This document shows, in pieces, positions 7,630-61,879 of a stretch of 64,000 nt of DNA. The notes below the pieces were generated by a model, which was not told where the DNA came from, searched no databases, and saw only the letters and a list, made by a program, of their open reading frames with translations. This DNA comes from Sphagnum compactum (lineage: Eukaryota), in assembly GCA_965153455.1 (NCBI GenBank), contig OZ234493.1, forward strand, positions 12,762,213 to 12,826,212, written 5' to 3'. A program made the position numbers and the translations under genes. The first letter of the stretch is position 1. Every line of letters starts with the position of its first letter.

Positions 7630-7735
7630 TAAAGTACTAAGTCCACTAACCCCATCTCTTATTATTTTGCACGGGTTGAGAGTGCGACAAAGAATGCAAC
7701 ATTAAAGTAGTATATTAAGTCCACTATTATAATAC

Positions 7736-7940
7736 TGCATTCACACTTGATGTTAAGTCAGTGTTAAATGAAAATCTAGGTGGCATCCTGGGTGGCACCC
7801 AATGTTAAAATGGGCGATAGCTTAATGTTAAGCGAGTGTTAACTTAACATAAAATGTTCATCATAAGTTGGTGTAAATCCTAAATGACATGGTGTAAAGG
7901 GGACTCAACACTAGAGTCCCTAACACCAAGTGTGATTGCA
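7736..7940. mobile_element. MITE-like repeat (tgcattcacact...agtgtgattgca ends); second copy inverted at ~43353-43570
   Basis: Imperfect terminal inverted repeat. Internal sequence (gtggcatcctgggtggcacccaatg, aacttaacataaaa, tagagtccctaacacca) matches the reverse complement of ~43353-43570. Confidence 0.65.
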
Positions 7941-8604
7941 CGTTTTAAGGCAACTCTCTCTTTAATGGAATTCAAGGCACCAATTTGAACAATCTCATTG
8001 GCCACAAGATTTTCCCTTCATACGTAATAAAGGCTATAATACACGTTTAATAAAGGCTATAATATCACGACATTTTAAATGCAAGTTTACTGAAGAGAAC
8101 TCCTCATAAACATGCTAGTCGGGTACAAAGCGAGGGTTTTTCCTTTTTTTTTTCCTCCAATTTTGTGATGTAGCTGAAGTGGTGATCTATACCCATGAGA
8201 TGATTTAGCCAGATTTGGCTACATATTAGAATATGAAAGTAGAAAATAAAACCAGAATCCTTCTATATTCATTCTTGGGCTACTTATTGGAATTTATCAT
8301 CATAAAAATCTGACAATTTGAATTTTATTTTATTTTTCAAAATCTAGCAAATTTGGGTACATTTTTTTCCCATGAAAAATGCTTTCTATTACCCATGTAT
8401 TGTCTACATGTTGGTCCAATTCTGGTATTAAAAGTCCAGACCAATCCAAGTGTAATTTCCCTCAAGGGATTCATATTTTGGCCCATATGTATGTATGTAA
8501 GTAAGGGAGAGAGACCATGGAACTTCTCTAGTTTCCCATTTGTTCCCACATTTTGAAGTTCCCGAAAAGTTCACTCTAAGTTCACAATAGCATGCATGAA
8601 GTTC

Positions 8605-8884
8605 ATTGTGTTTAGATTCATTATAGAGTATAGTAGCTTAAGGGATTTTTTATAGGCCCCTAGGTGATAAAAATAATAATAAGTCTATTTATTTTTATAT
8701 GAGGATTTTTGAAAGATGATATTTTGGCTTGTGTTGAAACTTGAGATTAGTTATAGAGTTATAATATCTTGAAAGATTTTGGTTTCTTTTAGAGGAATTT
8801 TTGAAGATTACATTTTTGCATGGTGAAAGATTTGAGTGTTCATAACTCTTCTTTTGCATTAAGATACTTTTTAATGCAAATGGC
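8605..8884 (+). mobile_element. ~320-bp HINE-like repeat family, copy 1 (truncated at both ends)
   Basis: Core ttgtgtttagattcattatagagtatagtagcttaaggga...ggcttgtgttgaaacttgagattagttatagag shared with six other copies. Confidence 0.85.
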
Positions 8885-11845: not shown

Positions 11846-12185
11846 AACAATGGGTATATGTCATTGTTTTACATTAAAAACCGTATCTTAAGGCAAAAGA
11901 AGAATTATGGAAACTCAAATAGTTCACCATGCAAAGATATACCTAAACTTCAAAAAAATCCTCTAAAAGAAACCAAAATCCTTCAAGATATTATAACTCT
12001 ATAACTAACCTCAAGTTTCAACACAAGCCAAAATTATCATCTTTCAAAAATCCTCATATAATAAAAATAGACCTATTATTATTATTATTACCTAGGGGCC
12101 TATAAAAAAATCCCTTAAGCCACTATACTCTATAATGAATCTAAACACAACAATATCCTTTTTTGCCTTGGTAGTAGGCAAGGCC
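11846..12185 (-). mobile_element. HINE-like repeat family, copy 2
   Basis: Reverse complement of the family core. Minus strand begins ggccttgcctactaccaaggcaa and ends tgacatatacccattgtt. Confidence 0.85.
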
Positions 12186-26900: not shown

Positions 26901-29389
26901 CAATTCTTCCCAATCTTTTGATTCCAATCTATTTCCTAAATGCATCTGTTAAACTGCATTGAAATTAATGATTTTTTATTTTCAAAGCTTATGGATTAAG
27001 ATTGAAAACATCTAATTCAAAAACCAATTTGGAGGATAATTTGTGCATGAATAGAAAGAAATTTTACAAAGCCAATTTCAATCTCTTCAAGGTTGCTTGC
27101 CTTTGGGGTGAGGTAGTCAGTTGTATAGATGTTATTTAACATGTTAAAATGCAGATGAAGTGTACAAGACTCAATTTGAGAAAAAACATTAAATGCAATT
27201 AGGTATGGGGAAAATCGGTGTGTATAAAAACTTTAAAATAAAAAAACACTATCAAAAAACCCTTGGAATGTAAATATAATAACATAACAACAAAAGAAGA
27301 TATCCAAAACAAGAGAAGAATAACAACACGAGTAAGGCAAACCTAAAAAATGTTAGCCATGGTTGAGGATGAGAACTAGTGCATTTGTTTCAAAAACACA
27401 ATGCAAATGCACAAAATGGCACAAAATGTTTATATGTCTTTTAAGCATATGATTGAAAAATGAAACTTGTTACACAAAAGTGAAAAACTTGTAGGAATGC
27501 AAAAAAAAAAAGGAGAATAAAAAACAAAAGCTTTAATATGAGCTTCAAGTCTTAACAACTTGCTTAAGATCTCATACACATATGGGGTGACATGGTTTCA
27601 TTAACATCCAATATTTTGGACATTGTTCAAAGCCTTTTCCTCAACTCAAGAACTTCCCAGCACTTGTTTTAGGAGTTCTTCAAATAATCATTTTAACCTC
27701 AAAAGATAAAACATTTGATGTCAATAAGGTCAAAACACACTCAAAAGAGCCACTAGCATTACTTCATATTAGGATAACATGTCCTTTTTCCTCAAAATAA
27801 TTTTTTCATATGAATGAATTTTTGAGTGAATTTTTTTGCAACTTGTTTTTAAATGGTTAAGTTGCCCCAATAAATCACATTTTTTTGGGATCATTTTTGA
27901 ATAAATAGGAATTTGTAAAGTTTGTAGATTCTTTGTAAATTTTATGTTTTATTTTGAAAAATGATGATAATTTTAAATCACACCAAAAAAATGTTCATTA
28001 TTTTAAGGTTTGATTTCATGCATTATAAATTTCAATTTTTTTCAATACATCATGTACATTATACCCCATATATATGTGGTAAATCAATTTTGAAATTTTG
28101 AAACGTACTTTGAATTTTAAAATTTTAAAATTCCACATATTGAAAATTATGAATGTTTTCTTTTGTATATCTAATAGGTATTATCATTCAATATTTTTTA
28201 CCAGCAACTTACTTTTATTATATGAGTCCTTTGAAAGTTCTTTGTAAAAATGTCCTTTTTTAATGAAACAAATTTTTGTTTTCAAAAGTCTTTAACTAAA
28301 CTGAGACCCAAAATTGAATCAAATGGATTTTTAATTTGAGTTTCTTGACATTTATATGTGTTATAAAAGAATAACTTTCCATGATTACTATGGTTTCAAA
28401 TGGAATTTTTAAAAAAAAGTCTTTAAATTTTCATGGTAATTTTTGACACTCGATGGCCTTTTTGGTTCCTTTGAATGTGTTTTGACCTAATGGTTGAAAA
28501 TATGTGTGAAAAATAATTACCAAATATCATATGAAAATATAGGAGCAATTTTTTTTCCCCAATTTTGTGAAGTTGTTTGGGTGACAATTATCCAAGATTA
28601 TTTAGCCAACTTTGGCAATATTCAAAATATGAAAGATATAAAATTTTAAGCCCTTTTAAGGTTATAGGTAGTTGTGGCAATATTTGGCCAAAAAAAATAT
28701 GGTGATTTGAAAACCTCTATTTGTTGGATCATAATTTATTCAAGCCAAACATCATTAATATCTATTGTTGTATCATATGGTGACCTTTAAATCAAAGTTT
28801 TTCTCTAAATTTTCAACCTTTAAATGGTCATTTGTTAATTCTAAACTTTTGAAAAGTCCAGATGTACTTATATAAATTATTTGAACTTTTATTCTAAAGC
28901 TTGGGTGGGAAGTTGCATGGATGGGGAACTTATGCTTTGTTCCCATCATGGAGCTACAATTTCTAAATTCTAAACCTCAAACCTCTATCTCCTAAACCTT
29001 TCACTATCACATTTTGTTACTATGGAATTTAAGGTTGCTATAATAATGTGAGTTTTGATTTAATATATTGTTATTTCCTTTTCCAAATTTTCCCCAACTT
29101 CTTGCTAAAAGTGATGGTTTTTTCTTCATATCATATCTTGAGTGCTCATGATATCAACTCTATTGACCAAATCCCTCCAACATTTGCAGGATCTGACGAT
29201 AACTACAATATTGAAAATGTGTAACTATCTCATGGAGGTGTGGAGTTTGGAGTTGAAGATTCCAAAATTGTTGTTGTTGATGAATAATGTCATTGAAATG
29301 CACTTTCAAAATTTGTGAAAACAAAGAGTTGCTTGGAATTCACATTATTGCAATTCACCTATATAGGCATTTTTTAAGGTAGACAATAA

Positions 29390-32749: not shown

Positions 32750-33075
32750 GGCCTTGGTAGGTCAAGGCAAAAAGGATATTGTGTTTAGATTCATTATAGA
32801 GTATAGTAGCTTAAGGGATTTTTATAAGCTCTTATGCAATAGGCCTATTTTTATATGAGGATCTTTGAAAGATGATATTTTGGCTTGTGTTGAAACTTGA
32901 GATTAGTTATAGAGTTATGATATCTTGAAGGATTTTGGATTCTTTTAGAGGATTTTTTTTTTGAAGATTATATTTTTTTTTGCATGGTGAAATATTTGAG
33001 TTTCCAAAATTCTTCTTTTGACTTAACATACTTTTAATGTAAATGGCAAGGCCACAATGTGACACATCCCTTGTT
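32750..33075 (+). mobile_element. HINE-like repeat family, copy 3
   Basis: Family core; ends atggcaaggccacaatgtgacacatcccttgtt. Confidence 0.88.
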
Positions 33076-34590: not shown

Positions 34591-34731
34591 GGAAAAAAAA
34601 AAAGAGTCAAGCTGGAGATCTCAAAATAAACATGCAATTCACAAGCTGAGTTGACAAAAAAAAAAACTTCGGGGACATGTATTTGAAACATGACAAGACC
34701 CACAAATTATTATTATGTACATACTTTTGTT

Positions 34732-35096
34732 GGCCTTGCCTACCAAGACAAGGATATTGTGTTTAGATTCAATACAGAGTATAGTAGTAACTTAAGGGAT
34801 TTTTATAGGCCCCTAGGTAATAATAATTAATAATAGGTCTATTTTTATATGGGGATTTTTGAAAGATAATATTTTGGCTTGTATTGAAACTTGAGATTAG
34901 TTATTATAGAGTTATAATATGATATTGAAGGATTTTTGGTTTGCTTTAGAGGATTTTTTTTTTTGAAGGTTATATTTTTGCATGGTGAAATAGGTATTTG
35001 AGTTTCCATAATTCTTCTTCTTCTTTTGCCTTAAGATAACTTTTTTAATGTAAATGGCAGGGCCAGAGTATGACACACCCCCCCCCACCTCTTGTT
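34732..35096 (+). mobile_element. HINE-like repeat family, copy 4
   Basis: Begins ggccttgcctaccaagacaagg, contains (aat)n, ends ggcagggccagagtatgacacaccc...cttgtt. Confidence 0.88.
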
Positions 35097-35684
35097 ATTA
35101 TTATTAGGGTTGCTTACTTTAGGCAACAAAGAGGGTGAGCATTGCTACTGCCCCAGTAGCCTAAATGGGACAAGCTGGTGGACTAGTTTGTCAACCTAGC
35201 AAGCCATTGATGGCTGTAGAAAAAGAGAGCTCAGCCCAGAGTTAGCTAGCCCTAATAGCCTAGTCACCTCTGAAGCAACCATCCATATGCATCACACATT
35301 TAGTAGGTACTAGCCTAGTAAGCCACCCATCCATCCACTAGTGCCTTAAATACTTACCTACATAACACGGTTCACCATCTACCACTACCACTAGTGGGTA
35401 CTCGTGACCTTCGGACATTGTGAAGTCCCCCGGTTTCTTTAAACCAAGAGAGACACACACAAAGGCGCAAAGCAGCTATTTTTTAATTTATTTTTATTGT
35501 TTTTGACGAAATTTCGTTGAAAAGTCCCCCATGAAAACATACATGGAGGGAATGTCTGATATATATAAAAGCCCCATTTTAGTCTAATCCAACCCATCCC
35601 CTTGGACGAAACCAAAGCCCAAGCCTTGAAAAAAAATTGGGAGTCCAAAGGAGACCCCGAAGAACCCCATACCCACAAGAAGAA

Positions 35685-38600
35685 TCACTGCAGCACCTCG
35701 CGGTAGACCACATTACTGGTGTAAACGCCAGCAGGGGCCCCATTCAGAGCCGCCCTGCTGCCACCCCGTACCAGCACCCGGACGCCCCGCCGTGAGCCGC
35801 ACCGAGAGAAAGCCACATAAAGCTGCCCGTGGCAAAAAACAGGCTTCGGCAGGTACACCCCCACTGTCTACAGTGTCTGCCCCTGGGCCTTGTTGATAGT
35901 CATGGCAAATGCGGGCCGCAACTGGAACTGTTGCCGGCGGAGAGTAAAAGGCATCCTTTCCGTGTCAGAGGGAGTGATGCTGAGGTGGGGAATGAAAACG
36001 CGCCTACCCTTGTCCGGTCCTGTGACAATGTCAGCATCAATTATGTGCTGCATCAGCTTGACCGCGATAAGCCAAGTGCCATTTGTAAGGCCGCCCGGCA
36101 TATTCCGCAGCAAAATCACCGGGCAGCCTTCCTACAAGGTCAAAGTGTGGGGTGGCACCCCTGACATGCTGAGGGAGTTTAGAAACTCAGTGGGGTAAAC
36201 CCCTCTCTGTTCGCCTTGCACAATAGAATCAGCGCTCTGGTACGTGTGGTGCTGTGCTGGTGGGTCATCAGGTGTGATGAGGTCAAACCGATTCATGATG
36301 GCGGTGTTGATGCTGTCAACGTTCTCGTTCAAAGGAGTTAAAATGGCCCTCTAAATGATGTGCTCATTGCGTGACTGCGAGTCTGTGAAGCGGCCAAGGT
36401 CGCCGTAAACTTCATCCACCAGGCTATCAATGGTGTCACCCTGGCAGCACATGTCTTCTGGGATCAAAACAGCCTCCTCCCCAACTTCAGGAAAGACTTG
36501 CTCTGTGCCCTCCCCAATGCGTTGCAAGTAGTCTGCCCAAGCTTGCTGTTGTTGGGCATCGACCGCGGCGTTGGCTCCGCCCTGTGCCAAAAGCCTCTGA
36601 ACACGCATGTTTTCATGCAGGTGACGCACTTTAACACGGTGCCAAAGGATTGCAGACCTCTAGAGACTGGCATCCACAATTTGGCCTCTCGTGCCCCGGG
36701 GAACCACAGGCAATAGCTGCCTAAAATCACCTCCCATGACAACAACCTTGCCCCCAAAAAGCATGTCCTTTAAGGCAGGGTCAACAGCACCCATAACATG
36801 CTGGAGCGTGCGGTTCACAGCCTCAAACACATGCTTGTGGGCCATGGGTGCCTCATCCCACACAATGAGGCGTGCAGCCCGAATCAAGGCCGCTTGTGGA
36901 GTGTTCAGGGGAACATAGCAAGCAGAGGAGCCACAAAGGCCTGCTATGGGAATTTTGAAACGTGAGTGAGCTGTGCAGTCGCCCTCCAAAAGCAGGGCTG
37001 CAATGCTAGAAGATGCCATCGACAACGCTATGTCACCAGTAGAGCGCACCTTGTTGAGTAGGCACCCGTAGAGGAAAGTCTTGCCAGCCCCTCCCAGCCC
37101 ATCAACAAAAAAGGTTTTGTCCACCGGCCTGGGGTCATGGACCGCGTCAATGACATTGTCGTAAATGGAACGCTGGTGCTGATTTAGCAAAGGCACATCC
37201 CGAGCAAGCTGCTGAGCTTGCCGCGTCACATTGTACCTGGCCCGCTCCTCGGATATAGCGGCGTCCCCCGGGGCGGCCAGCTGTGCCGGGATAGGTAGCT
37301 CAAAATCCTCTAGGGTTTTCCCCCCTTGGGCCTGCAACAGCTACTCCACTTCCCGCAAGCCCTGGTCAAGAATGGCCTGGTCCAGCTGCCGGTTGGGCGT
37401 TACCTGCGCGACGCAATCGGGGGCGGGGGGGGTTCTAATCCAGAAGTGCACATTTATTCATGCTTACAGCTGGCAAGGAAATCTGGTCTGCAATAGGATC
37501 CAGCAGCTCGTTGAACACCACCTCGAGGAGCTTGGCCTTAGGTTCAACAGACGCATCCAGCGGGATTTGCAGCACCAATATGTGATAAGACTCATTAAAT
37601 AAAATGTGTGGAATGATGTTGAGGGAGCAGCTTTCTAGTACATTGAATCCAACAATCGGCCATTCAATAGAGAAGTTTCCAGGCAACAGTTCAAAGAAGA
37701 CAACAGAGCACAACTTATACCATCACAACCCAACGAAAGGGAGGCTTGCAATTTCCTTTGTGGAGGCCTTTTGGCCACTCACTCGTGCTTGGTGCAGGAA
37801 ATCCTCCGTAAGGGCTCCCTTATGCCTGTCCCACAGCCGCCCAGGATTGGTGACGTTGTTGAAAATCAGTAGGCTAGTAAAAAGCTGCTGCAAGCTTTTG
37901 GGGAGTTGCAAGCCAGCAGCTTCTGAAAGGCACTCATCCCATTCAGCATCATCTTGCAGCAAGCCACGTGCAAGGCAGGCAGCTTTAAAAGTAGGGTGCA
38001 CAACTGTGGTAGGCGTGTGGGGCCAGTGGGTAATTCTGAGGTCCTCAAAGCATGTGGCCCCTGCAACGTGGGTAAGCAAAACTCGCAGATAATAACGCTC
38101 GCCCTCTGAGGGTTGCACAAAATACATGCGCCCCACAGTTCCCAATGTGACATGATTGTTTCGGCCTGCACCCCGCCACCCCGCTGCCCTTTTCTGCAGG
38201 TGCCACGCCTTTTTGGATTTGCTCCACACAGCGATTTCGGGATAATCTAGGTATAGTGTGGTCAGCACAGCAGGCAGTGGCGGTGCAGGGTCGTTGCTGT
38301 TGCGAGCCAAAGTGGTTGCAGCCGCGTATTCAAATTTGGCCTTTCGGTTGAAGTCACACCACCCAGTCAAAGTGGTGGAGTTGTTGCGCATCATGGCTTC
38401 CCCAACCGTGGTCCCCTCAGGAAAGTAAGTGGTCTGCTCATTAGGTAGATGAATAGCCAAGCGGTAAACATTGGGGTGCATGCCGTGCAAGTCAAAGGCA
38501 AAAAGCCGATGGCAGACTTTGCTGGCACTGACATACTGCCCATCGAGGTAATTTTGGACTTCATCCCGGGCGGCAGGCACATTGTTCCCATCGGCCCCAC

Positions 38601-41240
38601 CTGCAGCCGCTTGAGGCGCTGCAGCCGGCAGAGCCCCAGCTTCCGGCTGCACCACTGCCAAAGCACGGTCGTGACCCTTGTAAACATATTTGTAAAGGTA
38701 ATTCACAGCCGTGATGGAGCTGCAGACCTCAACATTGATGTGGAACTTGCACCGCATGGTTAGGTAGGCTTTGTACGGGACGACCCAACGGTTGTCAAAG
38801 ACAAAGCCCGAGCTGCAAGGGGGAGGGGGCAGCAACAAGAAGTTATCAGTCACCTTAGCGTCCCTTTCTCGCAGGTTTGGCTTCGCCTTTCTTTCACATC
38901 ATCATGCTTGAGGTGAAGTTTGGGACGCCTAAGAATCTAGAAGAAATGAGTTTCCAGGGCAGACTTAGACACAGACACTTATGGTCAGATGCATAGGAGA
39001 GCAACTCACTTACCAAATTTCCAATAGCTGCACTTACGTGGGGTGGGTGAAGGTCCTGCCGTCGTCCTGTCGCTGGTAGGTTGGGTAGCTGCCGGTGGAG
39101 TCCTCAGTTTGGGGTTGGAAAGTCTTGGGATAACCCTTGCTGCAAGCCCCATTCACCATGCAAGGACATGAGGGATGTAAGGCCCCACAGGGCCCATGCA
39201 ACATGCGAGATGTCACAATGTTGTAAAGCTCGGGGTTGGTGGATTTGTCTGGAAGCTCGGCACACACGATCCGGTCATAATCGCTGCTGTCACGCGGCTT
39301 GTCCTGGCTGCGTAGAATGATCAAAATGTGACCGTGCGGCAAGCTCCGCTTCTGCCATTCTACCACATGGATGTCCGCCACCGCAGTGCCCAAAACACCA
39401 TGCTGCAACAGGTCTTTGAGGAGGGCATTAAGCTTCATGTTGAACACCCTTAATGTTAAGTTAGGGCGGTCGTTGGCTTCCTCCTCAGGCCTTAGCTCAT
39501 GCAGAATCTTTGGCCAATTTGGGTTGCACGTCATGGTTATGAATAGGTCAGGTTTCCCAAACTTTCTGACCAAGGCCATGGAATCCTGGTAGAGCTAGTT
39601 CATGTGGCGGGGGCTACCAGCAAAACTGGCTGGAAGGACCACCATGCGCCCAAAGTTGGTGCTGTTAGCCCCGTCTTGCTGCATGGCATCTACCATTGCT
39701 TTATATTGGTCAGCACGCAGGGTGGTCTGGTGGAGGCGCACCCACCGCAGCCGCTGCCCCTCAACCTTGGAGTACTGGTCAACCACCCACTCTTGATATA
39801 GCCTCTTGCCATAAGTGAACGTGCTGTTGGTGGGAGGGTTGCGGTCATGCATGAAGTAAGCCGCGTATTCCCTGGCAGTAACCTTGCGAGCGATGCGCCC
39901 TGCGGCAGCTCCTCTGCCTCGGCCCCTACCCCTACCACGACCCCTGCCCCTACCCCTGCCCCTACCTCCACCACGCCCGAGGTCCACTGTCGGCTCCGCA
40001 TTAGGCTGCTGCTCATCTTCAGATGGCTGCTGTTGTTCGTCCTCAGATCTTAGCCCATCCACAACCGCAGGGGTAGCGCCAGTAATATTTGGGTGCCAGC
40101 CAGGCTCTCTGTGTGGGTGGTACAGGACAAAATGCAGAGGGTCATAAACACAGTGGGCATCACTAATCCTCCATAACCCCCCGCCCTTAGCCCGCACCTT
40201 GATGTTTCGTGGATTGCTACCTTTAGGGTCACCGTCTGGGTCACCATCGCCTGTGAGCAGGCACAAAAGGGATTAGATGATGGAAGGAACGTGCTGTCGA
40301 GGAACATAGCAATTAGGACGGCCAGCACCATAAAAAACAACACAGAATGGGGCACCAAAAAGCAGCCATGCAGCAACCCCATTCACTCACCAGGCATCAG
40401 GCCGGCCACGTCGCTGGATGTGGGGGCATTGTAGCGGCGGCGGTCAACGCTGCCATCAACACGGATGACAATCTCATAGTTAGCCAGGTCTTGAGGGGGC
40501 AAATCCATGGCCTACACAAAGCGTTGAACATAGACATTGCTCCCCAAAAGCATCTGCTGCAGCTCCTGTAAAGTGCGACGATCCAGGTCTACGTTGCCCT
40601 GATCGAGAGTAGCAAAACGGGCAACAGCCTTAGCATCCGCATTGTCTATGATATACAGCTGGGCAAACTGATGGGGGCTCCCTTGAGGAGGTGCCAACGG
40701 CCCCAGCAAATGATGCACAGCGCCCCTTATGGCAATCATACTGACCCCATCTGCGGGTGACTGGATGTTAATGCCAGAGGAGGCCATCTGCAAGGAGGAA
40801 TTGTATTTCCGGATGTGCTTGCGAAAAGATACGGTGGCAGGGGGGAGGGGTGCACCAGGAGCAGGCTCAGAAGTGAGCAGGTCCCGCAATGGTTGAGGAG
40901 GAGGAATGGGGAAGAGGGCCTCACAGCTACAAGATCTGCCTTTAGCACAGCAAAGGTCTGCGTGTCCTCGGGAAGCCTCATCAGGCCAAATCATAGCTCG
41001 GCACTGCTGGCACTCAGCTGTCCTACCCCCTATGTCAAACACCGTTACACTGGCCTCATCAAATTCTGAAAGGGGGACGCAGGCTGCTGTGTGCAAAGCT
41101 TGTTAACCTCGCGCCTGCTGGTGCCGCTCGTAGTCGCGGTCCCGCTGCTGCTGGCGCTGCTGGTATGTCAACCGGGCATGGGCCTCTGCGTGCTGCTCGC
41201 GGTCGCAGTCCCGCTGTTGCTGCCGGGCTGCGGTGGACAT
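35685..41240 (-). pseudogene. Helitron RepHel (Zn finger + HUH Rep + Pif1-like helicase), ~1600 codons. Exons 41240-40391, 40250-39038, 38812-37783, 37403-35685; start codon uncertain; 8 internal stops
   Basis: CQQCRAMIWPDE..CCAKG; LFITMTCNPNW; VEWQKRSLPHGHILI (HUH); YLYKYVYKG; DGLGGAGKTFL (Walker A); TAHSRFKIP; IVWDEAPM; GGDFRQLLPV; RRQQFQLRPAFAMTINKAQGQTL; HGQLYVAFSR; TSNVVYREVL then TGA. Three GT-AG introns keep phase. Confidence 0.93.
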
Positions 41241-41789
41241 GCGGTCCACATAGTTCCGCTGGTGGTCAACGGCAGACAGCCTGTTCCTGGAGGCGGCGTT
41301 CACAACACATATATGCAATGTGATTTCAGATGGCGATTCTCGTGTACATTTTTCACTTAGCAATTCTGCATATGCGAAATCAAGCACATAGCTATTTTCC
41401 ACTCGGCAATTTTGCATCTGCAAAATTTCACCAGTTCATAGGCTCACACTGGGATCCCCCAAAAGCAGCCTGGTTTTCCTGTGAGTGTTTTCCTGTGCAC
41501 CAAGTCTCCATTACAGAAAACCAACCAATTTACAGTTTCTGGGACATCACCATTACTTGTTATTTACTCACTCATGTTGCCAAGAGCAGTGACTTTGGTC
41601 CTTGGAGATGTCAAACTCTATTCAGGAGCAGTGAAGCAGAGAAATGCTTAGTGGAATGCATCACCTTTGTTGCCCATTCTCCATCCTGGTTTTGCAGAGC
41701 TTGCAATGCATTGATCATGATATCACACTGCAGGAATGCATAACTACAATTGATCAGCCTCAAAACCTTGAAAGCCCTTTCACCATCAC

Positions 41790-42500
41790 TCATACATTGG
41801 AGTGGAAAAATAGCACCTCCCACTCCCCCAATCACGGTTTGTCTCTAACACCTGTTTACGGTATTTTTCGGAGATCCCATCCAAGTTTTCCAGTTTATCT
41901 AAAACCTGGATCTTCTGCTGCTTTAAAGCTTTGCATTCCTTTGAATAATGTTCATACTTCTCATTCACCTCTTGGATCTGCATAGAATATATGTATGCTC
42001 CTATCATTCTCCGTTAGTAAATTCAACCATGCTTGAGTCCTTAGAAATTGCAATTTTTTATCATGTGCGCTACACACATGTTGATGGAATGAGCCAAGTG
42101 TAAGGAATGATGTCTTGGGTTGCTCAAGATTTACATGAGTAAGCGCACCTCCTTGCTTGCCACATCTATCTTCACAAGCTCTTCTGCCCTTGTTGTGGAT
42201 TCTGCATCCACACTGCAAATCATCAGATTCATGCAGGCAATTCTTTTCCCACATGATTATTGCTTCCCAATGCTTTAAATCTATACAATAAACACAGCAA
42301 CTTACTTTCATGCGGGCAACTAGGACAGCAATACCCTCGAAATGTTCTTTCTCAATTTCTTCAATCTTTCTCTTATACTCATCCCGTAGTCTGATCAATT
42401 CAGCAGATTCCAACAGAAGGTTTTGCTCCCTCTCCCTGTAGCATCATACCACAGCAAGCATCTGTCTGTTTCTGTGTTACCTTAGAGAGCTCTTCTCACG
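41790..42500 (-). other. Spliced coiled-coil gene fragment(s) inside the Helitron 5' region (captured or accessory)
   Basis: ELIRLRDEYKRKIEEIEKEH... followed by a gtaagt donor; AEELVKIDVASKE followed by a gtgcgc donor; after a tgcag acceptor IQEVNEKYEHYSKECKALKQQKIQVLDKLENL. One junction is not phase-compatible. Confidence 0.45.
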
Positions 42501-42639
42501 GGCTAAAAACTGCAGTGCCCCTTTCTTATTTCTGTGTTAGTGACGACGCGATCAATACATCCAATCTGGTGGTGAAGTGCCCCTTTCTTACCTCTGTGTT
42601 AGTGACGACGCGATCAATGTCTATGCGAGGAAACGGGAC

Positions 42640-43010
42640 CTCGTTTCTGTCAGGTCGAAATCCGAGAGTGCTGGGCCGGGTCCATCTGTAACAGACCTCT
42701 CCCTCCCCCACCCCCCACGCCGGGCCCGGTCGGCTTGAACGCCGGGCCCCGTCACAGACAGACGTACCAGGAGTGCCGGGCCGGGTCCAGCTGTAACAGA
42801 CCTCTCCCTCCCCCACCCCCCACGCCGAGGCCGATCGGCCTAAACGCCGGGCCCCGTCACAGACATACGTAGTGAAATTTGTGTCAGGTCGAAATCCGAG
42901 AATGCCGGGCCAGGTCCAGCTGTAACAGACCTCTCCCTCCCCCACCCCCCACGCCGGGCCCGGTCGGCCTGAACGCCGGGCCCCATCACAGACAGACGTA
43001 GTGAAATTAA
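42640..43010 (-). repeat. Three GC-rich ~100-130-bp tandem subterminal repeats at the Helitron 5' end
   Basis: gtcca.ctgtaacagacctctccctcccccaccccccacgccg...gccgggcccc.tcacagaca.acgta repeated three times. Confidence 0.9.
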
Positions 43011-43319: not shown

Positions 43320-45003
43320 TATTCCTACCCATGTTATACGTGGTTAAAAGGTGTGCATTCGCACTCTTTTTGGTGTTAAGGACTCTAATATTAAGTCCCC
43401 TAACTAACACCAAGCTTAGTCATTTAGAACCTAAACCTATTTACCACTAAGGTTTTATGTTAAGTTAATATTCACTTAGTATATTAAATAATCACCCGTT
43501 TCACATTGGGTGCCACCTAAGATGCCACGTAGATTTTCACTTCACATTGACTTAACAAAAGGTGTGAATGGGTATCATAAATAAGTGTGTAGATAATATA
43601 AGTGATAACTAGGTATGTTCATAAGACACTTGATGCCTAATAAGTAGGTAGGTAGGGAGGTAGATAAACGGATATGGGAACTATGGTTAGTAAAGAGGTA
43701 ACGAGCATGATGGTTGACGATAGGACAAGAGTAACCCCTTGTTCACTCTCGTCATGTCGCCTAACCCCTTTCACCGGGCATCCAAAGCGTCACTGGACCT
43801 TGGCAAAGCCCTCTATTAAGTCTATGGAGTCTCACATGCGCAGACTTTTCAAAAGCTTTTGAAGTGGGCAATTTTTTCCTCTTTCTTTTTTTTTTCTTTT
43901 TTTTTCTTTTTTTTTTTCGGTTTTTTGGCATGTTATTTACAACCTGGCCAAAAGGAAATAAAAGAGATACCAAAGGTCCAAAGGGTTTCTTATTTAATTA
44001 TAAAAGTAAGGCCAAGTCGTCACATTGTGAGAAAAAAAAATCTAAAGTCACCATATTTTCCAACAAGTTGGAATTATAGGAGGAATCCCAAAGCTTGGTC
44101 TCACCATTTATCTCTAGACAAAACTTGCACATAATTGGTGTAATTATGCGCAAAGTGCAAACCAGTGTTATGAGCATTTTGTAGGGTTAAAACCGGGGGT
44201 TGAGGTCAAAGTTCTTGTGATCTGAACTCAAGTTGACACTCTTTGGTTGGAACTAGCACAAGAATCAAACCGTGGAACTAGTCTTTTGCTAGATCAAGAA
44301 TCAAAATGAGAATTGTGTAAAAAAAACATTCTTGAACATAGGGTTGAGATTATTTTTTTTTCATTTTCATTTTTTGAAAAGTTGATGAATTTTATGGTTA
44401 AGCTTATATTTTATTTCATTTTTGGCACAAAATGAAAAAAAATTAGTTAAGTACTAATCTCAATTAATTGTTGAGCTCCATATCTGTATAGACTCTTATT
44501 TTAATTTGTTGTAAAACTTTGCACCCATGGAGTGATTAGCATTGAAAAATGTGTAATGTGTACATGGCATTGGACCCCATTTTGGAATGGGACCCAGGGG
44601 TTCTTGAATTTGAAAATATGAGGGACTTTAAAATTAGAATAAATCATGAATACTACCCAAAATTAGTGAATTTATTACTAATAAAAATACTATATAATTT
44701 CTAATAATTATTTTACTATTATAGTGTCAAAACTTGGTTTGCCAAATTCTTTTTTTTGGTAGAACAAATAGTTTCAAACTAGGGCAAATATTAGTTTATT
44801 CTTGTTATAGAACAAACATCCTTTTTTGACTTTGGTGTCAAGCTTTCTTTCCTTTTTCAAGCCCCAAGCCATGCAAGCCCCCTGATCGATGATAACAAGT
44901 GACCGACAACAAGAACATTTCCCCAGAGGCTAATAATACAAAGTCAATGCCGAAATCATGAGTGAGAGTATCAACTTGTGCACCAGCACTTTGTCACACG
45001 TAA

Positions 45004-45383: not shown

Positions 45384-45672
45384 TAAGGTCCATGAAAGTG
45401 ATGAGAAGCAGCGCCAAGCTTTTTAATTCTACTACTAAGAACTTGGGGTGTGATGTCCTTGGAATATACAACTACTAGATGGGATTCCAGTCTCCCACCT
45501 CAAGTCCTGACACAATGAGGTAAGAAGGTCATCTAGTAGTATCTATGCTTGATCACTAGATCCACTATCTATTCTCAACTGATCTTGATAGCTCATTAAC
45601 TCTGTCCAGTGCAAGTGGTTTTGATCAATTCTATTGAGCTCATTAGTTGTTTTTTGTTTTCTCTTTTTTCCA

Positions 45673-45994
45673 GGCCTTGCCTACCAAGGCAAGGATGTTG
45701 TGTTTAGATTCATTATAGAGTATAGTAGCTTAAGGGATTTTTATAGGCCCCTAGGTATCTAATAGGTTTATTTTTATCTGAGGATTTTTGAAAGATGATA
45801 TTTTTGGCTTGTGTTGAAACTTGGAGATTAGTCATAGAGTTCTAATATCTTGAAGGATTTTGGTTTCTTTTAGAAGGTTTTTTTGAAGATTATATTTTTG
45901 CATGGTGAAATATTTAAGTTTCCATAATTCTTCTTTTGCCTTAAGATACTTTTTAATGTATATGGCAAGGCCACAGTGTGACACACCCCTTGTT
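45673..45994 (+). mobile_element. HINE-like repeat family, copy 5 (most complete)
   Basis: 5' ggccttgcc-taccaa-ggcaagg; 3' ggcaaggcc-aca-gtgtgacacac-cccttgtt; T-rich flanks. Confidence 0.9.
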
Positions 45995-47502
45995 TTGGTT
46001 TTGGAAATATATCACATCTGGCTCCTATTTGAGCACTTGTGGTGTTGAGTTGTTTACTGGTTGAAATGGCTGGGAGATCCATTTGGGTGAGAGGATTGCT
46101 TCATGAGTAAGATTTTGGCGATTCTTTTAAAGGGAATGGGGTTCATTTAGGTGTTAATTGGTTTTCCAAGGTGGTTGATTCTCACTACCAAGTTTAAAAT
46201 TTTGATAGGTTTTTGGCTATTATGAAAGCATAGTAGGAAAAATTTAGGTTACCTACTTTTAAACAGTAGAGACTCTAGTCCAAGAGTCCAAAGAAGCACA
46301 TAGAAATGAACATATATTTCGAGACTCAACCTTGCACAAGGGCAATGCATGAATCATGATGCAACCAAAACAAACATACAATTGCATAATGCTCATACGC
46401 AAAACTAAAACCCCAAACATACAAAAACAATCAATAATTAGTGATCATTTGTGAAAGGATTGAACCTTTCAAACTGCCTATTGCAACACAAGTATCTTGC
46501 AAAACAAACATTAACCAACAAATAGTAGAACCCAAGAAAAACATATTCTAACTTTTGCATCAAAAAATTGCATAGCTAAAAGCCTTAAACAAATCAAGCT
46601 CCCACCCCATACCAAGGATGCTATGCATGTGTTGAACCATAACCTAACCTAGCAAATCTATCTAATGCAATTTGGAATTGTTCTCCACATTAAAAAAATC
46701 AAATAGCTCTTTGTGAACCTCATATTGGTTTGGGTCATGCTATAAGGTTTGGATAGTTGAACAAGGTGGCAAATTGTATGAACTTCCTACTTCCCCCCCC
46801 CCTCCACCCTATTAACAACCAATTGTGCAACACTAATTCCCTACCCTTAAAGGCATAAGTAACCTCCTTTATGGCATGTTTATAGTCCTTACTAGTGTAT
46901 TAGTCCCCCTTCTTCACCCCTCTGAAAGTTGTTTTTGCTTTTTTACAACACACAAGTTTTGGAATGAACCTCATTTAAGTATTAATAGTTTTTTTTGTTC
47001 CACCCTTGAACAAACTTTGCACTTGACAATATGCACACATCCATAGGATCCATTTACAATTTGGCCCAAGGTAAGTTTGCCACCCATGAAATTTGGAGTT
47101 TCTGGATTGACTCATATAACAAATTTTTTTTCTTGGCTTTTAATGACAACACATGATCACCATGTGTAAGAAGAAAAGCCATAAACTTTGGAGATTTGTT
47201 GACAACAAAGTCTAAAAGTGAATACATTAGAGGACATTCCAAATTTGTACTTTTGAAATTATTAAAACAAATGACCAACACAACATTCCAAGCAATGAAT
47301 GCACCAGGTGTATGTGATTGCACTATTGCCACTTGAAATTGCAACATGAATCATTACAAGTAACCTAAAATCACTAGGGTTACAAGAAGAATAAAATTTT
47401 TGGAACTTGAAGTTTTGCAACAATTGAAGAGGAGACATATTCTTGATCTCAATTCTTGATTGAGAAAACGTGCAAAAGCTTCAAACCCCAATGTAAACCT
47501 TG

Positions 47503-47795
47503 ACAACATCGCTCAAGGATCACAATTCACAATATGCAACACCAAGAACTCAAAAGCTTACAACATCGCTCAAGGATCACAATTCACAATATGCAACACC
47601 AAGAACTCAAAAGCTTACAACATCGCTCAAGGATCACAATTCACAATATGCAACACCAAGAACTCAAAAGCTTACAACATCGCTCAAGGATCACAATTCA
47701 CAATATGCAACACCAAGAACTCAAAAGCTTACAACATCGCTCAAGGATCACAATTCACAATATGCAACACCAAGAACTCAAAAGCTTACAACATC
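47503..47795 (+). repeat. Perfect 57-bp tandem repeat, 5 copies plus 8 bp
   Basis: acaacatcgctcaaggatcacaattcacaatatgcaacaccaagaactcaaaagctt at 47503, 47560, 47617, 47674, 47731. Confidence 0.97.
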
Positions 47796-49631: not shown

Positions 49632-49992
49632 AACAAAGGGGGGTGTGTGTCACACTGTGGCCTTGCTATTTACAGTAAAAAAAAGGGTAATATCTTTAGG
49701 CCAAAAAAAATAAAAAATGATGGAAACTCAAATATACCTATTTCACCATGCCAAAATATATAATCTTCCAAAAAAAAAATCCTCTAAAAAAAGAAACCAA
49801 AAAAAAAATCCTTCAAGATATTATTATAACTCTATAAATAACTAATCTCAAGTTTTTTCAATACAAGCCAAAATATCATCTTTCAAAAATACTCATATAA
49901 AAATAGACCTATTATTATTATTTATTATTAAAATCCCTTGAAGCTACTATACTCTTTAATGAATCTAAACACAACATCCTTGCCTACTTGCC
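49632..49992 (-). mobile_element. HINE-like repeat family, copy 6, just upstream of the receptor kinase
   Basis: Reverse complement of the family core; minus-strand 3' end gcaaggccacagtgtgacacacacccccctttgtt. Confidence 0.85.
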
Positions 49993-56300: not shown

Positions 56301-58119
56301 TGAAGTTTGAACTTGTTGGGTAGTTATCCAAAAAGGAACCAAACCCCCAAAGTTATCACCATGGCTTGTAGGGTTCATAACCCTAAATTATTGATTGTCC
56401 CAAATCAAAGAACCCTAAGTTACCTAGTGTCCCAAATCAAAGAACCCTAAGTTACCTAGTGTCCCAAATCAAAGAACCCTATGTTACCTACTATCCCGAA
56501 TCAAAGAACCCTAAGTTACCTAGTGTCCCAAATCAAAGAACCCTATGTTACCTACTATCCCGAATCAAAGAACCCTAAGTTACCTAGTGTCCCAAATCAA
56601 AGAACCCTATGTTACCTACTATCCCGAATCAAAGAACCCTAAGTTACCTAGTGTCCCAAATCAAAGAACCCTAAGTTACCTAGTGTCCCAAATCAAAGAA
56701 CCCTAAGTTACCTAGTGTCCCAAAGCAAAGAACCCTAAGTTACCTAGTGTCCCAAATCAAAGAACCCTAAGTTACCTAGTGTCCCAAAGCAAAGAACCCT
56801 AAGTTACCTAGTGTCCCAAATCAAAGAACCCTAAGTTACCTAGTGTCCCAAAACAAAGAACCCTAAGTTACCTACTATCCCGAATCGAAGAACCCTAAGT
56901 CACCTAATGTCCTAGCAACCTTGAATACTCAAGTTATGATGAACACCTTGACACATTGCTAGAGAATGAAAACTCATCAACCCACACAATTGTGTATCTA
57001 ATAGACCCACTTCATACCCCAACATTAGCTTTCTAACTTGGATACCTATTAACTTGTCCATTAACTCCTCTAGGTTTGGCAAGGGTAGGGGAAAATGGAT
57101 ATTATATGACTAGCACAAACTAGCCAATGGCACACCAACTTCACTTCGTGATATATAAATGTCATGTCCACACATAATGTAAATAAATGATTGTAATATT
57201 ATTGCAATAATAATATTGTAATAAATGATTGTAAATAATTATGTAATAAATGAATTTTATTAATAAATTTTCGAGAACTTGTGGTCCTCATGTGTGCACC
57301 CATTCTAGGGCCCCTTGCCATATTGACCAACCCATCTTGGCATCACCTTGATTATATTTTAATGCTAGGAATTTTGGCGATCTAACTAGTCTCTTTTTTC
57401 TCGTTTTTTTCCAATTTTTGTGATGTTGCTCAAGTGGTGACCATCGAATATTTAGCCAAATTTGGTGATATTCAAAATATGAAAGTTTAAAAAATAATCT
57501 TAAGCATCCTTTCATGCAATTGTGGTGAATTTTGGTGAAAAGATTTTCTTCAAAAAACAAGAGTCAATGTGTGAGAGAGTATTCTTTTTCATAATACTAT
57601 TTTTCAGAAAATGGTGAAAATTCACCACAAAAAAATATATTAATAATTAATAATTAATTTCCAAAAAAAATCTGTGATTCTTCTCTAACTTGAATAAATA
57701 TTGCAGGTATTCTGGAAACCCATATTTATGCATATCAACAACTACATGTTCAGCACATTTTTCACCTTCACCATCACCAACAATTGCGCCGCCGCCACCG
57801 AATCCAAACCCTAATCATATAGCAGCTATTGTGGGAGCTATTGTGGGAGGCTTAGTTGTGGCCATGGCAGCCACATTGGTGCTACTCTACTACTTTTGTT
57901 ATTGCAAAACCAAAAACAACAACCATTCTGAAGGGGAGATGGCAATAGCCGAAATGCAATCGCCGGGTCCACAAAAGCCATATGGAACGGGTATGTGATT
58001 TTTTTCTCCATACCTCATGTCCTCGATTATATATTTTTGCTAATTTTTTTATATTTCTAGTTTGTAAATAACAATTTAATTATATTCACGATATCAACCA
58101 TATGACCGGAACTCATTTA

Positions 58120-58169
<50 letters not shown>

Positions 58170-61100
58170 TACATATTCTAGTGTACCCTTTTAGTTCCAA
58201 ATGCCCATCGTCAAATTTATTTACTATTTATCATCAAAATTTGCTTTTCGTTACCTTCACAATTTTAATAACTTTTCAACCCTTTCCAATCTTCAAACCA
58301 AAAGGCAAAAAAGTTGTTCATATGTTCAAGTTCTATTTAGTACTCTTTTTTTTTTAAAGTGGATAGCTACAACTTGTACCATATAAGTTCATGTTTACAT
58401 ATTGGTCATTTCACCTTATAATTTCATATATTAACCATCCTTAATAATGTTAATCCATTTTAGAAGAATGGGTATTTTTTCAAAAATGGGATATTATATA
58501 TTTTTTAAATTTTATTGAAAAATTGAATAAATTCAAAATAATGCTTTCTTAACTCCAAATTGCACATGTGTAGACATTCATGGTAGTAGACCAAGAGGAT
58601 TAGATGAACAACACCAAGTTGGGGGCCCACAAGTTGCACAAGAATATTCATTTGTGGAGGTGATGAGTGCAACAAACAATTTTGCAAAGGTCCTTGGAGA
58701 AGGTAGCTTTGGTGTTGTGTATTATGGAAAACTACCTAATGGACAAGAAGTTGCGGTTAAAAGGTTGTCTACTACTTCGCATCAAGGAGCTAAGGAGTTT
58801 TTCACCGAGGTATGTTTATATATATCTCTCACTAAAACTACCAAGTTAGTACAATTTTAACCTGAAAATATAATTTCAGCATTTTTTTGAATATTAATTA
58901 AATTTTCAAACCTTTGAAATCATTTTTACATTTAATTGAATATTTTTTTACAAGATTTTAGCAAAATTGTCTCTACTACATTGTAATTTACTTTGTTTCA
59001 ATTTTTTTTGTTTATAGGTCGATCTCTTAACCAAAGTGCACCATAAGAACTTGGTGTCTTTGCTTGGATTTTGTAATACGAAAAAGGAGCAACTATTGAT
59101 TTATGAATATATGTCCAATGGAAGCCTGTGTGAAAGCCTTTACGGTAAGATTCACAACTCTTTTAAGATTTTTGCAACGATAATGTGTTATTGTCTATGT
59201 GCTCCATTTTAGGTACGATTTTTTAAAAGTGTCGAAAAAATTGTATTATATAATTTTAAAAGTGTCAAAAATTTGTATTATATCTACAATGTTTTGCCAA
59301 TTGCATTTCAAATTTATACATGTCAATGAATCGTGGGGGTCATGATCTTTTAGGAACTCCAAAGGCGTACAACAATCCAATAAATTGGAAAACTCGACTC
59401 AACATTGCTCTTAATGCTGCACAAGGTTCAAAATATTATATTTTTTTAATACATACCATTATACATACATCATCATTATTTTTATTATTATTTCAAAGGA
59501 AATTTTTTTTATTTACTTTTAAATCATTTTCATTAGTAACAAATGCATCATAATTCCATCAATTATGTGTTTATCACCAAATGTGTTTAATTTTTAAATC
59601 ACATTTTGTTGTAACATACAGGATTGGAGTATTTACACACGGGTTGCAAACATCCCATCATCCACCGTGATATAAAACCTAGCAACATTCTTCTTTCATC
59701 CAAAATGGTTGCTAAGGTTGCCGATTTCGGACTCTCGAAAATTAATGTGAACGAGGGTGCTTCCTATGTCTCCACCCAAGTCAAAGGCACAGCTGGCTAT
59801 ATGGACCCCGAGTATGTGAACTATTCTTTTTTTTTTTTGCCAATTTGTGTCATTTTCCATATCATCGTCTTTTGAAACTTTACTAAAAAAAATTAAATGG
59901 TTTAGGGTTTAGTTCAATTTGTGTCATTTTGCATATCATTGTCTTTTGAAACTTTACTAAAAAAAATTAAATGGTTTAGGGTTTAGTCCAATTTGTGTCA
60001 TTTTCCATATCGTCGTCTTTTGAAACTTTACTAAAAGAAATTAAATGGTTTAGGGTTTAGTCCAATTTGTGTCATTTTCCATATCATCGTCTTTTGAAAC
60101 TTTACTATAAAAAATTAAATGGTTTAGGGTTTAGTCCAATTTGTGTCATTTTCCATATCGTCGTCTTTTGAAACTTTACTAAAAGAAATTAAATGGTTTA
60201 GGGTTTAGTCCAATTTATGTCATTTTCCATATCATCGTCTTTTGAAACTTTACTAAAAAAAATAAATGGTTTAGGGTTTAGTCCAATTTGTGTCATTTTC
60301 CATATCATCATCTTTTGAAACTTTACAAAACATTTAAACGGTTTAAGGTTTAGTCATATGGTATTGGCAAGAATGCTTTTGCAAGGCATTTCTTTCAAAA
60401 AAGGAAATAAATGCCTTGTTCTAGCCACCGGCCAAGTCTTTAAAACCTTATAATGTGGTCTTGTGGCATTCACAATGTCATTTGCGGGTGGGTATATTTT
60501 TTTCTAAACCCATGCAAAATAACGAGTTTGAATTCAATGTCTCGTTGTCTTGTCGGGTTATCGATTGCCCAGGTATTACAAAAACGAGCAATTAACGACA
60601 AAAAGCGATGTCTTTAGCTTTGGAATCGTGTTGTTGGAATTGATATGTGGACGTAAATCCATCAATGTTGAATTACCTCCAAACAAGCGCCAACTCACGG
60701 ACTGGGTATGTTGCTTTTCCATATGCACATGATTATAAAAAAAAATTATTTATATATATATTTTATAATTTATCATTAATTATGGATGATTTATAAAAAA
60801 ATTTGATTTCAAGTTGCCATCCACTTGAAAAATAGTGGCCTTTCATTTATTTAACATAAAAAACTTGGGTACAATTAATTACAAATCAAAACCCAAAATT
60901 AAAAAAATTAAAACTCTTTCGACACAAATAAAAACAATACTTATCACAAATATCCCTAAATTCTTATTAGGGTAGTATTTCCATTTGTCCAAAAAGTTAC
61001 AAAATACTTCTTTGTCCATAGACTTATTGATTATGGTTCAATTACACGTAGAAACACCATGCATTATTTATAGTTCAATTCAAGGTTTTGGCATATTACA

Positions 61101-61879
61101 TGAACCTCCTCTTCATCATTTCCAATTTGATTATGGAATTGATAGAAAGAAAAAAAACCAAACCATTAAACTTAAGACATAAATGAAAAGTTCCGTGTTT
61201 TTAATTTTATTTCAATATTTTAATTTATATTTCAATATTAGTTAGTTTGTTGGCCTTGCCTTGGTAGGCAAGAAGGATATTGTGTATAGATTCATTATAG
61301 AGTATTGTAGCTTAAGGGATTTTTATAGGCCCCTAGGTAATAATAATAATAATAATAGGTCTATTTATTTTTATATGAGGAATTTTGAAAGATGATATTT
61401 TGGCTTGTGTTGAAACTTGAGATTAGTTATTATAGAGTTATGACATCTTGAAGGATTTTGGCTTCTTTTTTAAGAGGATTTTTTGAAGATTATATTTTTG
61501 CATGGTGAAATATTTGCAGGTGAGGTCACACTTACAAGCGGGAGTTATCCATCCCGTTGTCGACCAAGCATTGGGAAACCAATTCAACATCGAAAGCATG
61601 TGGAAGGTAGCCGAGATAGCAATGAGGAGTGTTGAACCATATGGTGCACATAGGCCAACTATGATGCAAGTCGTGGCTGATCTTCGAGAAGCCATGGAAA
61701 TCGAAGAGAATGTGAATCCTTCAAATCGTGCTAACCCTGAACATCAAACAATCAGTAGAACACTATTAGGAGGAAACTTTACAAGTCATGAGAGTTTAGA
61801 TCACGTTGTGGGAGACAACTCACTAACACCTTCAAGCTCAAGTAAAGTGGATATTGACTCCGGCCCACATGCAAGGTAA
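50362..61879 (+). CDS. Malectin-like-domain LRR receptor-like Ser/Thr kinase (LRR-I type), 15 exons: 50362-50449, 50787-51345, 52194-52717, 54000-54141, 54808-54879, 55264-55335, 55676-55744, 56094-56165, 57707-57990, 58574-58809, 59018-59144, 59354-59425, 59622-59811, 60573-60705, 61520-61879 (in-frame upstream ATG at 50278 is an alternative start)
   Basis: Signal peptide ending [12 protein letters not shown]; malectin-like [49 protein letters not shown]; four 69-72-bp LRR exons; GNPYLC; TM helix; kinase [42 protein letters not shown]-terminal GPHAR. All junctions GT-AG and in phase. Confidence 0.96.
53015..53553. mobile_element. MITE-like element with 28-bp perfect inverted ends in kinase intron 3
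   Basis: agtgaaccagcacccaccagcacaccat ... atggtgtgctggtgggtgctggttcact. It interrupts a degenerate cattctgcac repeat tract (~52860-53660). A related shorter IR pair lies at ~48713-48939. Confidence 0.75.
56397..56912 (+). repeat. 32-bp minisatellite, 16 copies, in kinase intron 8
   Basis: gtcccaaatcaaagaaccctaagttacctagt and variants at exact 32-bp spacing. Confidence 0.97.
57410..57640 (+). repeat. Interspersed repeat family (caattttgtgatgt.gct.aagtgg...atttagccaaatttgg...aatatgaaagt). Other copies at ~1590-1720(-), ~8155-8350(+), ~10480-10562(-), ~28558-28700(+); variant at ~48455-48570(+)
   Basis: The same ~100-bp core is recognisable in five or six places and in both orientations; class not determined. 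Confidence 0.75.
59840..60355 (+). repeat. ~74-bp minisatellite, 7 copies, in kinase intron 13; each unit contains a tttagggtttag-like motif
   Basis: ccaatttgtgtcattttccatatcatcgtcttttgaaactttactaaaaaaaattaaatggtttagggtttagt repeated. Confidence 0.95.
61252..61516 (+). mobile_element. HINE-like repeat family, copy 7 (3'-truncated), abutting the final splice acceptor of the kinase
   Basis: Begins ggccttgccttggtaggcaag. Family sequence runs to gcatggtgaaatatttg, then cag|exon 15. Confidence 0.88.

Follow-up and report, generated by a model that had tools for sequence, protein, structure and literature searches.

A non-coding repeat of ~320 bp occurs at seven loci in the 64,000-nucleotide stretch of Sphagnum compactum DNA analysed here (assembly GCA_965153455.1, contig OZ234493.1, positions 12,762,213 to 12,826,212 of the forward strand; this whole stretch is called the window, and positions are counted from its first letter). 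The repeat is best explained, with a probability that we put at roughly 0.65, as a decayed, non-autonomous family of Helitron2-type (HLE2) rolling-circle transposons in a moss genome. It is the architecture of the element, and only this, from which membership of Helitron2 would follow: asymmetric inverted repeats, a 5' hairpin built on the left repeat, a right repeat at some distance from the 3' end, T-rich flanks and the lack of a target-site duplication.

Seven copies of a short non-coding repeat

An earlier reading of the letters, made without database searches (the sequence-only reading), had placed copies of the repeat at seven positions. The same seven loci were retrieved with blastn (query 45600-46100) and with an nhmmer profile derived from all seven, and a search of the whole window with this profile revealed no eighth copy at E ≤ 10. 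The copies are arranged as follows, with the one at 45673 serving as the index copy.

8606..8884, plus strand: internal fragment; lacks the 5' hairpin and breaks within the right repeat
11846..12185, minus strand: both termini present; left repeat 12185-12177 intact, with TTTGTTTT before it; (AAT)n tract 12090-12076; TTGTT ends at 11846
32750..33075, plus strand: complete; 5' hairpin in the flipped-loop form with a 5-nt deletion; right repeat 33045-33053; palindrome ATGTGACACAT 33057-33067; TTGTT ends at 33075
34732..35096, plus strand: complete; left repeat 34732-34740, with TTTTGTT before it; right repeat 35056-35064 (one mismatch); palindrome 35068-35078 (one mismatch); expanded C-run before TTGTT
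45673..45994, plus strand: index copy, complete
49632..about 49985, minus strand: 5' end scrambled, with a flipped-loop remnant; 3' end intact; right repeat 49667-49659 (one mismatch); palindrome 49655-49645 (perfect); TTGTT ends at 49632
61252..61515, plus strand: 3' side truncated; left repeat 61252-61260, with GTTTGTT before it; loop TTGGTA (flipped form) 61261-61266; (AAT)n tract 61338-61355

Both ends are retained in four of the seven copies. A search of the window for lone ends, in which up to three mismatches were allowed, matched only ends of the seven known copies. Identity between copies is 76-90% when gaps are counted and 78-94% over the ungapped core columns, and because the copies are thus 6-22% apart, the family is probably no longer active. 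The longest reading frame inside the copies does not exceed 65 aa. Homology from copy to copy ends within about 10 nt outside the repeat unit, which indicates a discrete short repeat that is not part of a longer block shared within the window. An internal (AAT)n tract, which had been described as a property of the family, was found with at least three units and varying length in five of the seven copies, but is missing from the index copy and from copy 32750.

Structure of the element ends

The end motifs lie where the sequence-only reading had located them, with a 5' repeat that pairs with an adjacent GGCAAGG and, in addition, with a subterminal right repeat. In the index copy, all on the plus strand, the features are:

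45673-45681: left repeat GGCCTTGCC, the 5' start of the element
45675-45694: 5' hairpin, with the loop TACCAA at 45682-45687, followed by GGCAAGG at 45688-45694
45964-45972: right repeat GGCAAGGCC, followed by ACA
45976-45986: 11-nt palindrome GTGTGACACAC, followed by CCC
45990-45994: terminal TTGTT, which closes the 3' end

The two 9-mers of the index copy form a perfect asymmetric inverted repeat of 9 bp, and the neighbouring bases do not extend the pairing. The left 9-mer is perfect in four of the five preserved 5' ends, and the right 9-mer is retained in four copies, perfectly in two of them and with one mismatch in the other two. The left 9-mer GGCCTTGCC occurs six times on both strands of the window, compared with an expectation of 0.46, and none of 100 shuffled sequences reached six occurrences. 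With up to three mismatches, a 26-nt motif from the 3' end was found four times and a 22-nt motif from the 5' end three times; neither appeared in the shuffled sequences.

The 5' hairpin has a stem of 7-8 bp, which is built on bases of the left repeat. It folds better than shuffled sequence in four of the five copies (z -3.37, -2.38, -3.67 and -2.91), while the fifth hairpin, that of copy 34732, is broken by a single G-to-A change (z -1.14). Upstream of the left repeat the homology between copies stops within 0-10 nt. The two bases that precede this repeat are TT in three of the five copies, and TC and CA in one copy each.

On the 3' side, a palindrome of 11 nt begins 3 nt past the right repeat. 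It is perfect in three of five copies, has one mismatch in copy 34732 and is degenerate in copy 11846(-). In the palindrome of copy 32750, ATGTGACACAT, the outer bases are changed on both sides in such a way that the pairing is preserved. All five preserved 3' ends are closed by TTGTT, and in the four copies that retain the right repeat the distance from it to the end of TTGTT is 22, 22, 27 and 32 nt. This tail is conserved in four of the five copies that have a 3' end and is degenerate in copy 11846(-), in which the right repeat is deleted and the TAC of the hairpin loop is duplicated.

Two versions of the 5' hairpin loop are present, TACCAA and TTGGTA, which are reverse complements of each other; three copies or remnants represent each. 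TACCAA is found in copies 45673, 34732 and 11846(-), and its exact reverse complement TTGGTA in copy 61252, with flipped remnants in copies 32750 (32757-32762) and 49632(-). Nine sites of the core are informative about the relationship of the two sets, and because five of them group the members of the flipped set, they weakly favour a single inversion in one lineage over repeated flipping. Two of the remaining sites conflict with this grouping, and two involve the fragment that has no hairpin.

Target sites and flanks

The sequence-only reading had noted that no target-site duplication is evident, and this was upheld by a systematic scan of the four complete copies. All offset pairs from -45 to +5 and from -30 to +44 were searched for direct repeats of 2-10 nt, and no repeat of at least 4 nt was found at one offset in more than two of the four copies. 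Only repeats of 2-3 nt were common to three of the four, as would be expected from so many trials. In addition, the flanks were searched freely for common words of at least 6 nt. This yielded a T-rich 7-mer, TTGTTTT, and a 6-mer in copy 45673, and a 10-mer in copy 34732 only. The latter is of the (ATT)n type and is present 26 nt upstream of the copy (34706-34716) and directly downstream of it (35097-35107); flank pairs shared a 10-mer by chance in 0.97% of 20,000 random trials. It may reflect insertion into a microsatellite.

The T-richness of the flanks was likewise borne out. In the orientation of the element, 97 of 200 flanking bases are T (0.485, against a background of 0.309), a value reached by only three of 20,000 random sets (p about 1.5e-4). 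In three of five copies a T immediately precedes the left repeat. The word TTTGTT, which has a frequency of 0.0011 per position, directly abuts the left repeat in two of the five 5' ends and lies 2 nt away in a third. The TTGTT in front of the left repeat may consist of element bases, in which case the left repeat would be subterminal as in HINEs, or it may mark a preferred landing site 3' of this word. Local realignment of the 60-nt 5' flanks gave no convincing homology beyond TTTGTT. By eye, TTAGTTG was seen ~24 nt upstream in two copies, which is possibly due to chance.

The Helitron2-type reading and its difficulties

If the repeat is a Helitron2-type element, its transposition could be pictured as follows. 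A Rep/helicase (RepHel) of the Helitron2 clade, supplied in trans, would nick one strand at the left end and unwind the element in the 5' to 3' direction. The right repeat would then pair with the left one over 9 bp, thereby displacing the hairpin of 7-8 bp, and would act as the stop mark, as proposed by Bao and Jurka; the small palindrome and the terminal TTGTT would follow. The released strand would be circularised, and the circle would be pasted into a T-rich site without duplication. TTGTT stands at all five 3' ends and (T)TTGTT at three of the five 5' ends, and we therefore infer that the same pentanucleotide could be the context of cleavage and joining at both junctions.

A more far-reaching version of this reading is rather doubtful. 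It holds that the repeat is a very high-copy peat-moss family of the Helitron2 type that current Helitron finders miss, that its Rep would cut and join at TTGTT at both junctions (in the host flank on the left, in the element on the right), and that the two loop orientations would be the footprint of a hairpin extruded in the single-stranded intermediate. The paired TTGTT junctions and the flipped loop do offer two testable handles on end recognition in Helitron2.

It should be noted that several observations weigh against a Helitron2-type origin. The inverted repeat of 9 bp is at the low end of the range given by Bao and Jurka and below those given by HELIANO (12-16 nt) and by Thomas et al. 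(12-15 bp). The class proposed by the sequence-only reading, a HINE or Helitron2-like element, is matched on the Helitron2 side by the end architecture, but the repeat is too short for the HINE range; moreover, the HINE/DINE label implies an endonuclease-bearing Helentron as partner, which is hypothetical here. At the 3' end, the palindrome has a stem of only 4-5 bp, and its folding energy shows no gain over shuffled sequence in any of the five copies (z +0.42, +0.15, +0.82, +1.24 and -1.36). The small 3' hairpin of the sequence-only reading therefore counts as a conserved palindrome and not as a demonstrated hairpin. In two of the five preserved 5' ends (CCA and GTC) the left repeat has no T before it, and TTGTT is followed by a T in only two of five copies; insertion between T and T is thus conjectural. 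Weak similarity runs 2-10 nt past both ends, so the termini are approximate to the base. On the 5' side of copy 34732 the 10-mer is displaced by 16 nt, and the pair could represent a target duplication that includes filler. Pfam scans, which covered all 103 stop-to-stop frames of at least 90 aa in the window and four shorter ones, revealed no Helitron2 RepHel among the 103 frames; the only RepHel is of the canonical type.

The copy number is also an odd fit, with seven copies in 64 kb when HLE2 insertions in an entire Sphagnum genome number only 555. If the whole genome were as densely populated as the window, it would contain tens of thousands of copies, against the 555 that were counted. Either HELIANO missed the family, or the region is enriched, or the host is a different species from the one counted.

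Alternative explanations

It appears unlikely that the repeat is another kind of single-strand (HUH-type) element, mobilised by the canonical Helitron family of the window or by an enzyme whose insertion point lies 3' of TTGTT. Elements such as IS200/IS605 and IS91 integrate beside a short target of fixed sequence, and the occurrence of TTGTT at the right end of all five copies and of (T)TTGTT at the left end of three of five, together with hairpins at the ends and the missing duplication, is in line with such a mode. The canonical Helitron is, in addition, the only source of a Rep seen in the window. However, no BLAST match was found between the repeat family and the region 35.4-43.3 kb, TC...CTRR ends are lacking, and two of the five left flanks are without TTGTT. 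The combination of an asymmetric repeat with a 5' hairpin is a signature of Helitron2, and beyond the TTGTT pattern nothing speaks specifically for an HUH-type element of another kind.

Canonical Helitrons (HLE1) begin with TC, end with CTRR, carry a hairpin 10-12 nt upstream of the 3' end and insert between A and T. As a candidate for the repeat itself, this class was rejected: the repeat has GGCC (or TT GGCC) at its start and TTGTT at its end, and neither TC nor CTRR is present in either orientation. A canonical Helitron in reverse orientation, with the hairpin followed by CTAA, was rejected as well, the spacers being unrelated and 7-27 nt long, with no common CTRR within 15 nt of the hairpin.

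An ordinary cut-and-paste miniature inverted-repeat transposable element (MITE) with terminal inverted repeats of 9 bp, moved by a DDE transposase, is quite improbable. In a MITE the inverted repeats form the extreme ends, and a target duplication of constant length flanks them. The perfect 9-bp inverted repeat, the size, the AT-richness and the lack of coding capacity would fit, and at its start the left motif resembles the GGCC... termini known from some Tourist-like MITEs. The 22-32 nt beyond the right repeat would, however, have to represent either a conserved target or one component of a composite, whereas their conservation in four of five copies argues that they belong to the element. 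Neither at the 9-mers nor at any common offset is there a target duplication. Folded as single-stranded DNA, the whole element forms no long foldback and does no better than shuffled sequences (z -1.3), and the window contains no DDE transposase.

There is similarly little to be said for the repeat as a piece of something larger, be it a solo long terminal repeat (LTR), the LTR of a terminal-repeat retrotransposon in miniature (TRIM) or a captured fragment. Copies 32750 and 34732 lie in the same orientation 1.65 kb apart, and weak similarity continues for a few bases past both ends of the repeat. These two copies are, however, among the least alike (79.8%), each having greater similarity to other copies than to its neighbour, as would not be expected of a pair of LTRs. 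TG...CA ends and a 5-bp duplication are lacking, the copies cease to be homologous within about 10 nt of the unit, and no reverse transcriptase or integrase was found in the window.

A short interspersed nuclear element (SINE) or another retroposed element, which would also be short, non-coding and dispersed in and near genes, is very improbable, given that ARAGORN found no tRNA-like gene in the window, that the only two Rfam matches (E 3.8 and 9.8) are far under the gathering scores, and that an A-rich or simple-repeat tail and a flanking duplication are missing. SINEs carry a head derived from tRNA, 5S or 7SL RNA, a 3' tail and target duplications of variable length. The sequence-only reading had itself named an ordinary MITE, a SINE and an LTR as outcomes that would speak against it; a target duplication at the inverted repeats, a SINE or tRNA signal and LTR features were all absent.

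Genes and other repeats in the window

The following coding regions were recognised by Pfam:

2.7-6.2 kb: YSL/OPT transporter gene
19-22 kb: ARM/TPR gene
about 35.4-40.3 kb, minus strand: degenerate Rep/helicase (Helitron_like_N and PIF1)
50.7-62 kb: malectin-like receptor kinase

Neither a second Rep/helicase nor a DDE transposase or a reverse transcriptase was recognised in the scanned frames, and none of the matches was named DUF6570, which serves HELIANO (PMC11417382) as a marker to distinguish HLE1 from HLE2. An exon of the YSL6 transporter is 86% identical (272/316) to a Sphagnum jensenii protein, and the next named matches are from liverworts (69%). The ARM/TPR exon has 80% identity to Physcomitrium, with a best match of 87%, and the three best matches of a 391-aa piece of the Helitron protein are from Sphagnum fallax (75-86% over 29-46% of the query).

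Two copies of the repeat are close to or within the receptor-kinase gene. Copy 49632(-) lies about 770 bp upstream of an exon of the malectin-like kinase, and copy 61252 sits in an intron of the gene. The homology of the latter copy ends with ...TATTTG, 3 nt ahead of CAG and the exon for the C-terminus of the kinase, and the pyrimidine-rich stretch ahead of this likely acceptor is therefore sequence of the copy.

The canonical Helitron is a degenerate autonomous element on the minus strand, which starts with TC at ~43008, ends with CTAG+T at ~35396 and has a Rep/PIF1 helicase that is broken by many stops. A related second Helitron 3' end is located at ~43010 (-), and the 35396-43008 element starts directly after its CTAG, in a head-to-tail arrangement. 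The two 3' ends (~43010 and ~35396) have in common ...TGTCCGAA..TCACG.GTACCCACTAG, followed by T. GC-rich tandem repeats at 42511-43008, with units of ~62 and 105-235 bp, belong to the 5' portion of the Helitron and explain a GC peak of 0.50-0.54 at 36-44 kb. An inverted match of 200 bp (76%) connects 7727-7929, downstream of the transporter gene, with 43370-43580, just outside the upstream Helitron end, and may represent another Helitron-related fragment.

A second short repeat family of ~110-135 bp is present in both orientations at 1595-1734, 8137-8249, 28549-28676 and 57394-57522, with 74-79% identity. Tandem arrays with periods of ~64, 74 and 57 bp and 91-99% identity are located at 56379-56912, 59840-60355 and 47495-47795, respectively, the first two within the region of the receptor-kinase gene.

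Comparison with known systems

The nearest system within the window is its own Helitron, which has the canonical TC...CTAG structure that had been ascribed to it, with ends that differ from those of the repeat family. A Helitron2-type family would belong to the same rolling-circle superfamily and resides in the same genome, but the canonical element (HLE1) starts with TC, ends with CTAG+T, has no inverted repeat and has no sequence in common with the repeat.

Beyond the window, literature searches added little. Among the matches listed for sequence strings of the family, there were only primer and clone sequences and none on transposons, and a search for Sphagnum together with Helitron or MITE returned nothing relevant beyond HELIANO.

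As described by Bao and Jurka (2013; PMC3627910), the terminal inverted repeats of Helitron2 elements are asymmetric and 8-15 bp long. The left repeat, 0-2 bp away from the 5' terminus, pairs with bases downstream of it to give a 5' hairpin, while the right one is found ~20-30 bp before the 3' terminus, "immediately upstream from the hairpin". The elements begin with a 5' T and insert after T runs without duplication. The moss repeat resembles this description in its asymmetric repeats, the 5' hairpin on the left repeat, the position of the right repeat, the missing duplication and the T-rich upstream sequence. It differs, in a comparison by description and not by sequence, in that the 3' hairpin is only a palindrome of 11 nt and in that the flank is (T)TTGTT, in three of five copies, instead of TTTT.

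In DINE-1 and the HINEs of insects and mites, according to the structural descriptions of Thomas et al. (2014; PMC4067079), the subterminal repeats are 12-15 bp long (13 bp in DINE-1), a short inverted repeat has its 5' side nested in the left repeat in DINE-1, the 3' end carries a short stem-loop or a palindrome of 5-10 bp, and microsatellites and T-rich or TT targets are typical. The same source requires at least 11 identical bp for membership of a HINE family and points out that such elements are easily mistaken for MITEs. The moss repeat has in common with them the subterminal inverted repeats, the nested 5' inverted repeat, the short 3' palindrome, the internal microsatellite (in five of seven copies) and the T-rich targets. 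In contrast, its repeat of 9 bp falls short of 12-15 bp and of the 11-bp family rule, the right repeat of mite HINEs is 38-60 bp from the 3' end instead of 22-32 nt, and the host is a moss.

The sequence-only reading had regarded such elements as best known from animals and algae rather than land plants. This angle is weaker than had been assumed, because a Selaginella Helitron2 is listed by Bao and Jurka (2013; PMC3627910) and because, in the survey results of HELIANO (PMC11417382), HLE2 elements (Helitron2 and Helentron) are reported for 13 of 74 land-plant species, including six of six mosses. The number of HLE2 insertions given in Table S10 of that study is 555 for Sphagnum magellanicum, 105 for Pohlia nutans, 54 for Ceratodon purpureus, five each for Thuidium tamariscinum and Antitrichia curtipendula, and one for Physcomitrium patens. 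The terminal inverted repeats reported there for HLE2 are 12-16 nt long, and neither of the two 9-mers of the present family occurs in the accessible supplement text.

The general picture is unchanged, given that Helitron2-type elements have already been reported in mosses. What the family would add to the few Helitron2 elements of land plants is a dense and gene-adjacent case, one copy being intronic and another lying ~770 bp in front of a receptor-kinase exon. As a matter of routine, short elements of the Helitron2 type are annotated as MITEs or receive no classification at all, and a clear case from a peat moss would improve the annotation of bryophyte repeats. A possible counterpart is HelenSM92, an HLE2 family of Sphagnum magellanicum that is described in the same study (PMC11417382) as having short terminal inverted repeats and TT insertion sites: by description, it has a moss host and short inverted repeats in common with the family of S. 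compactum.

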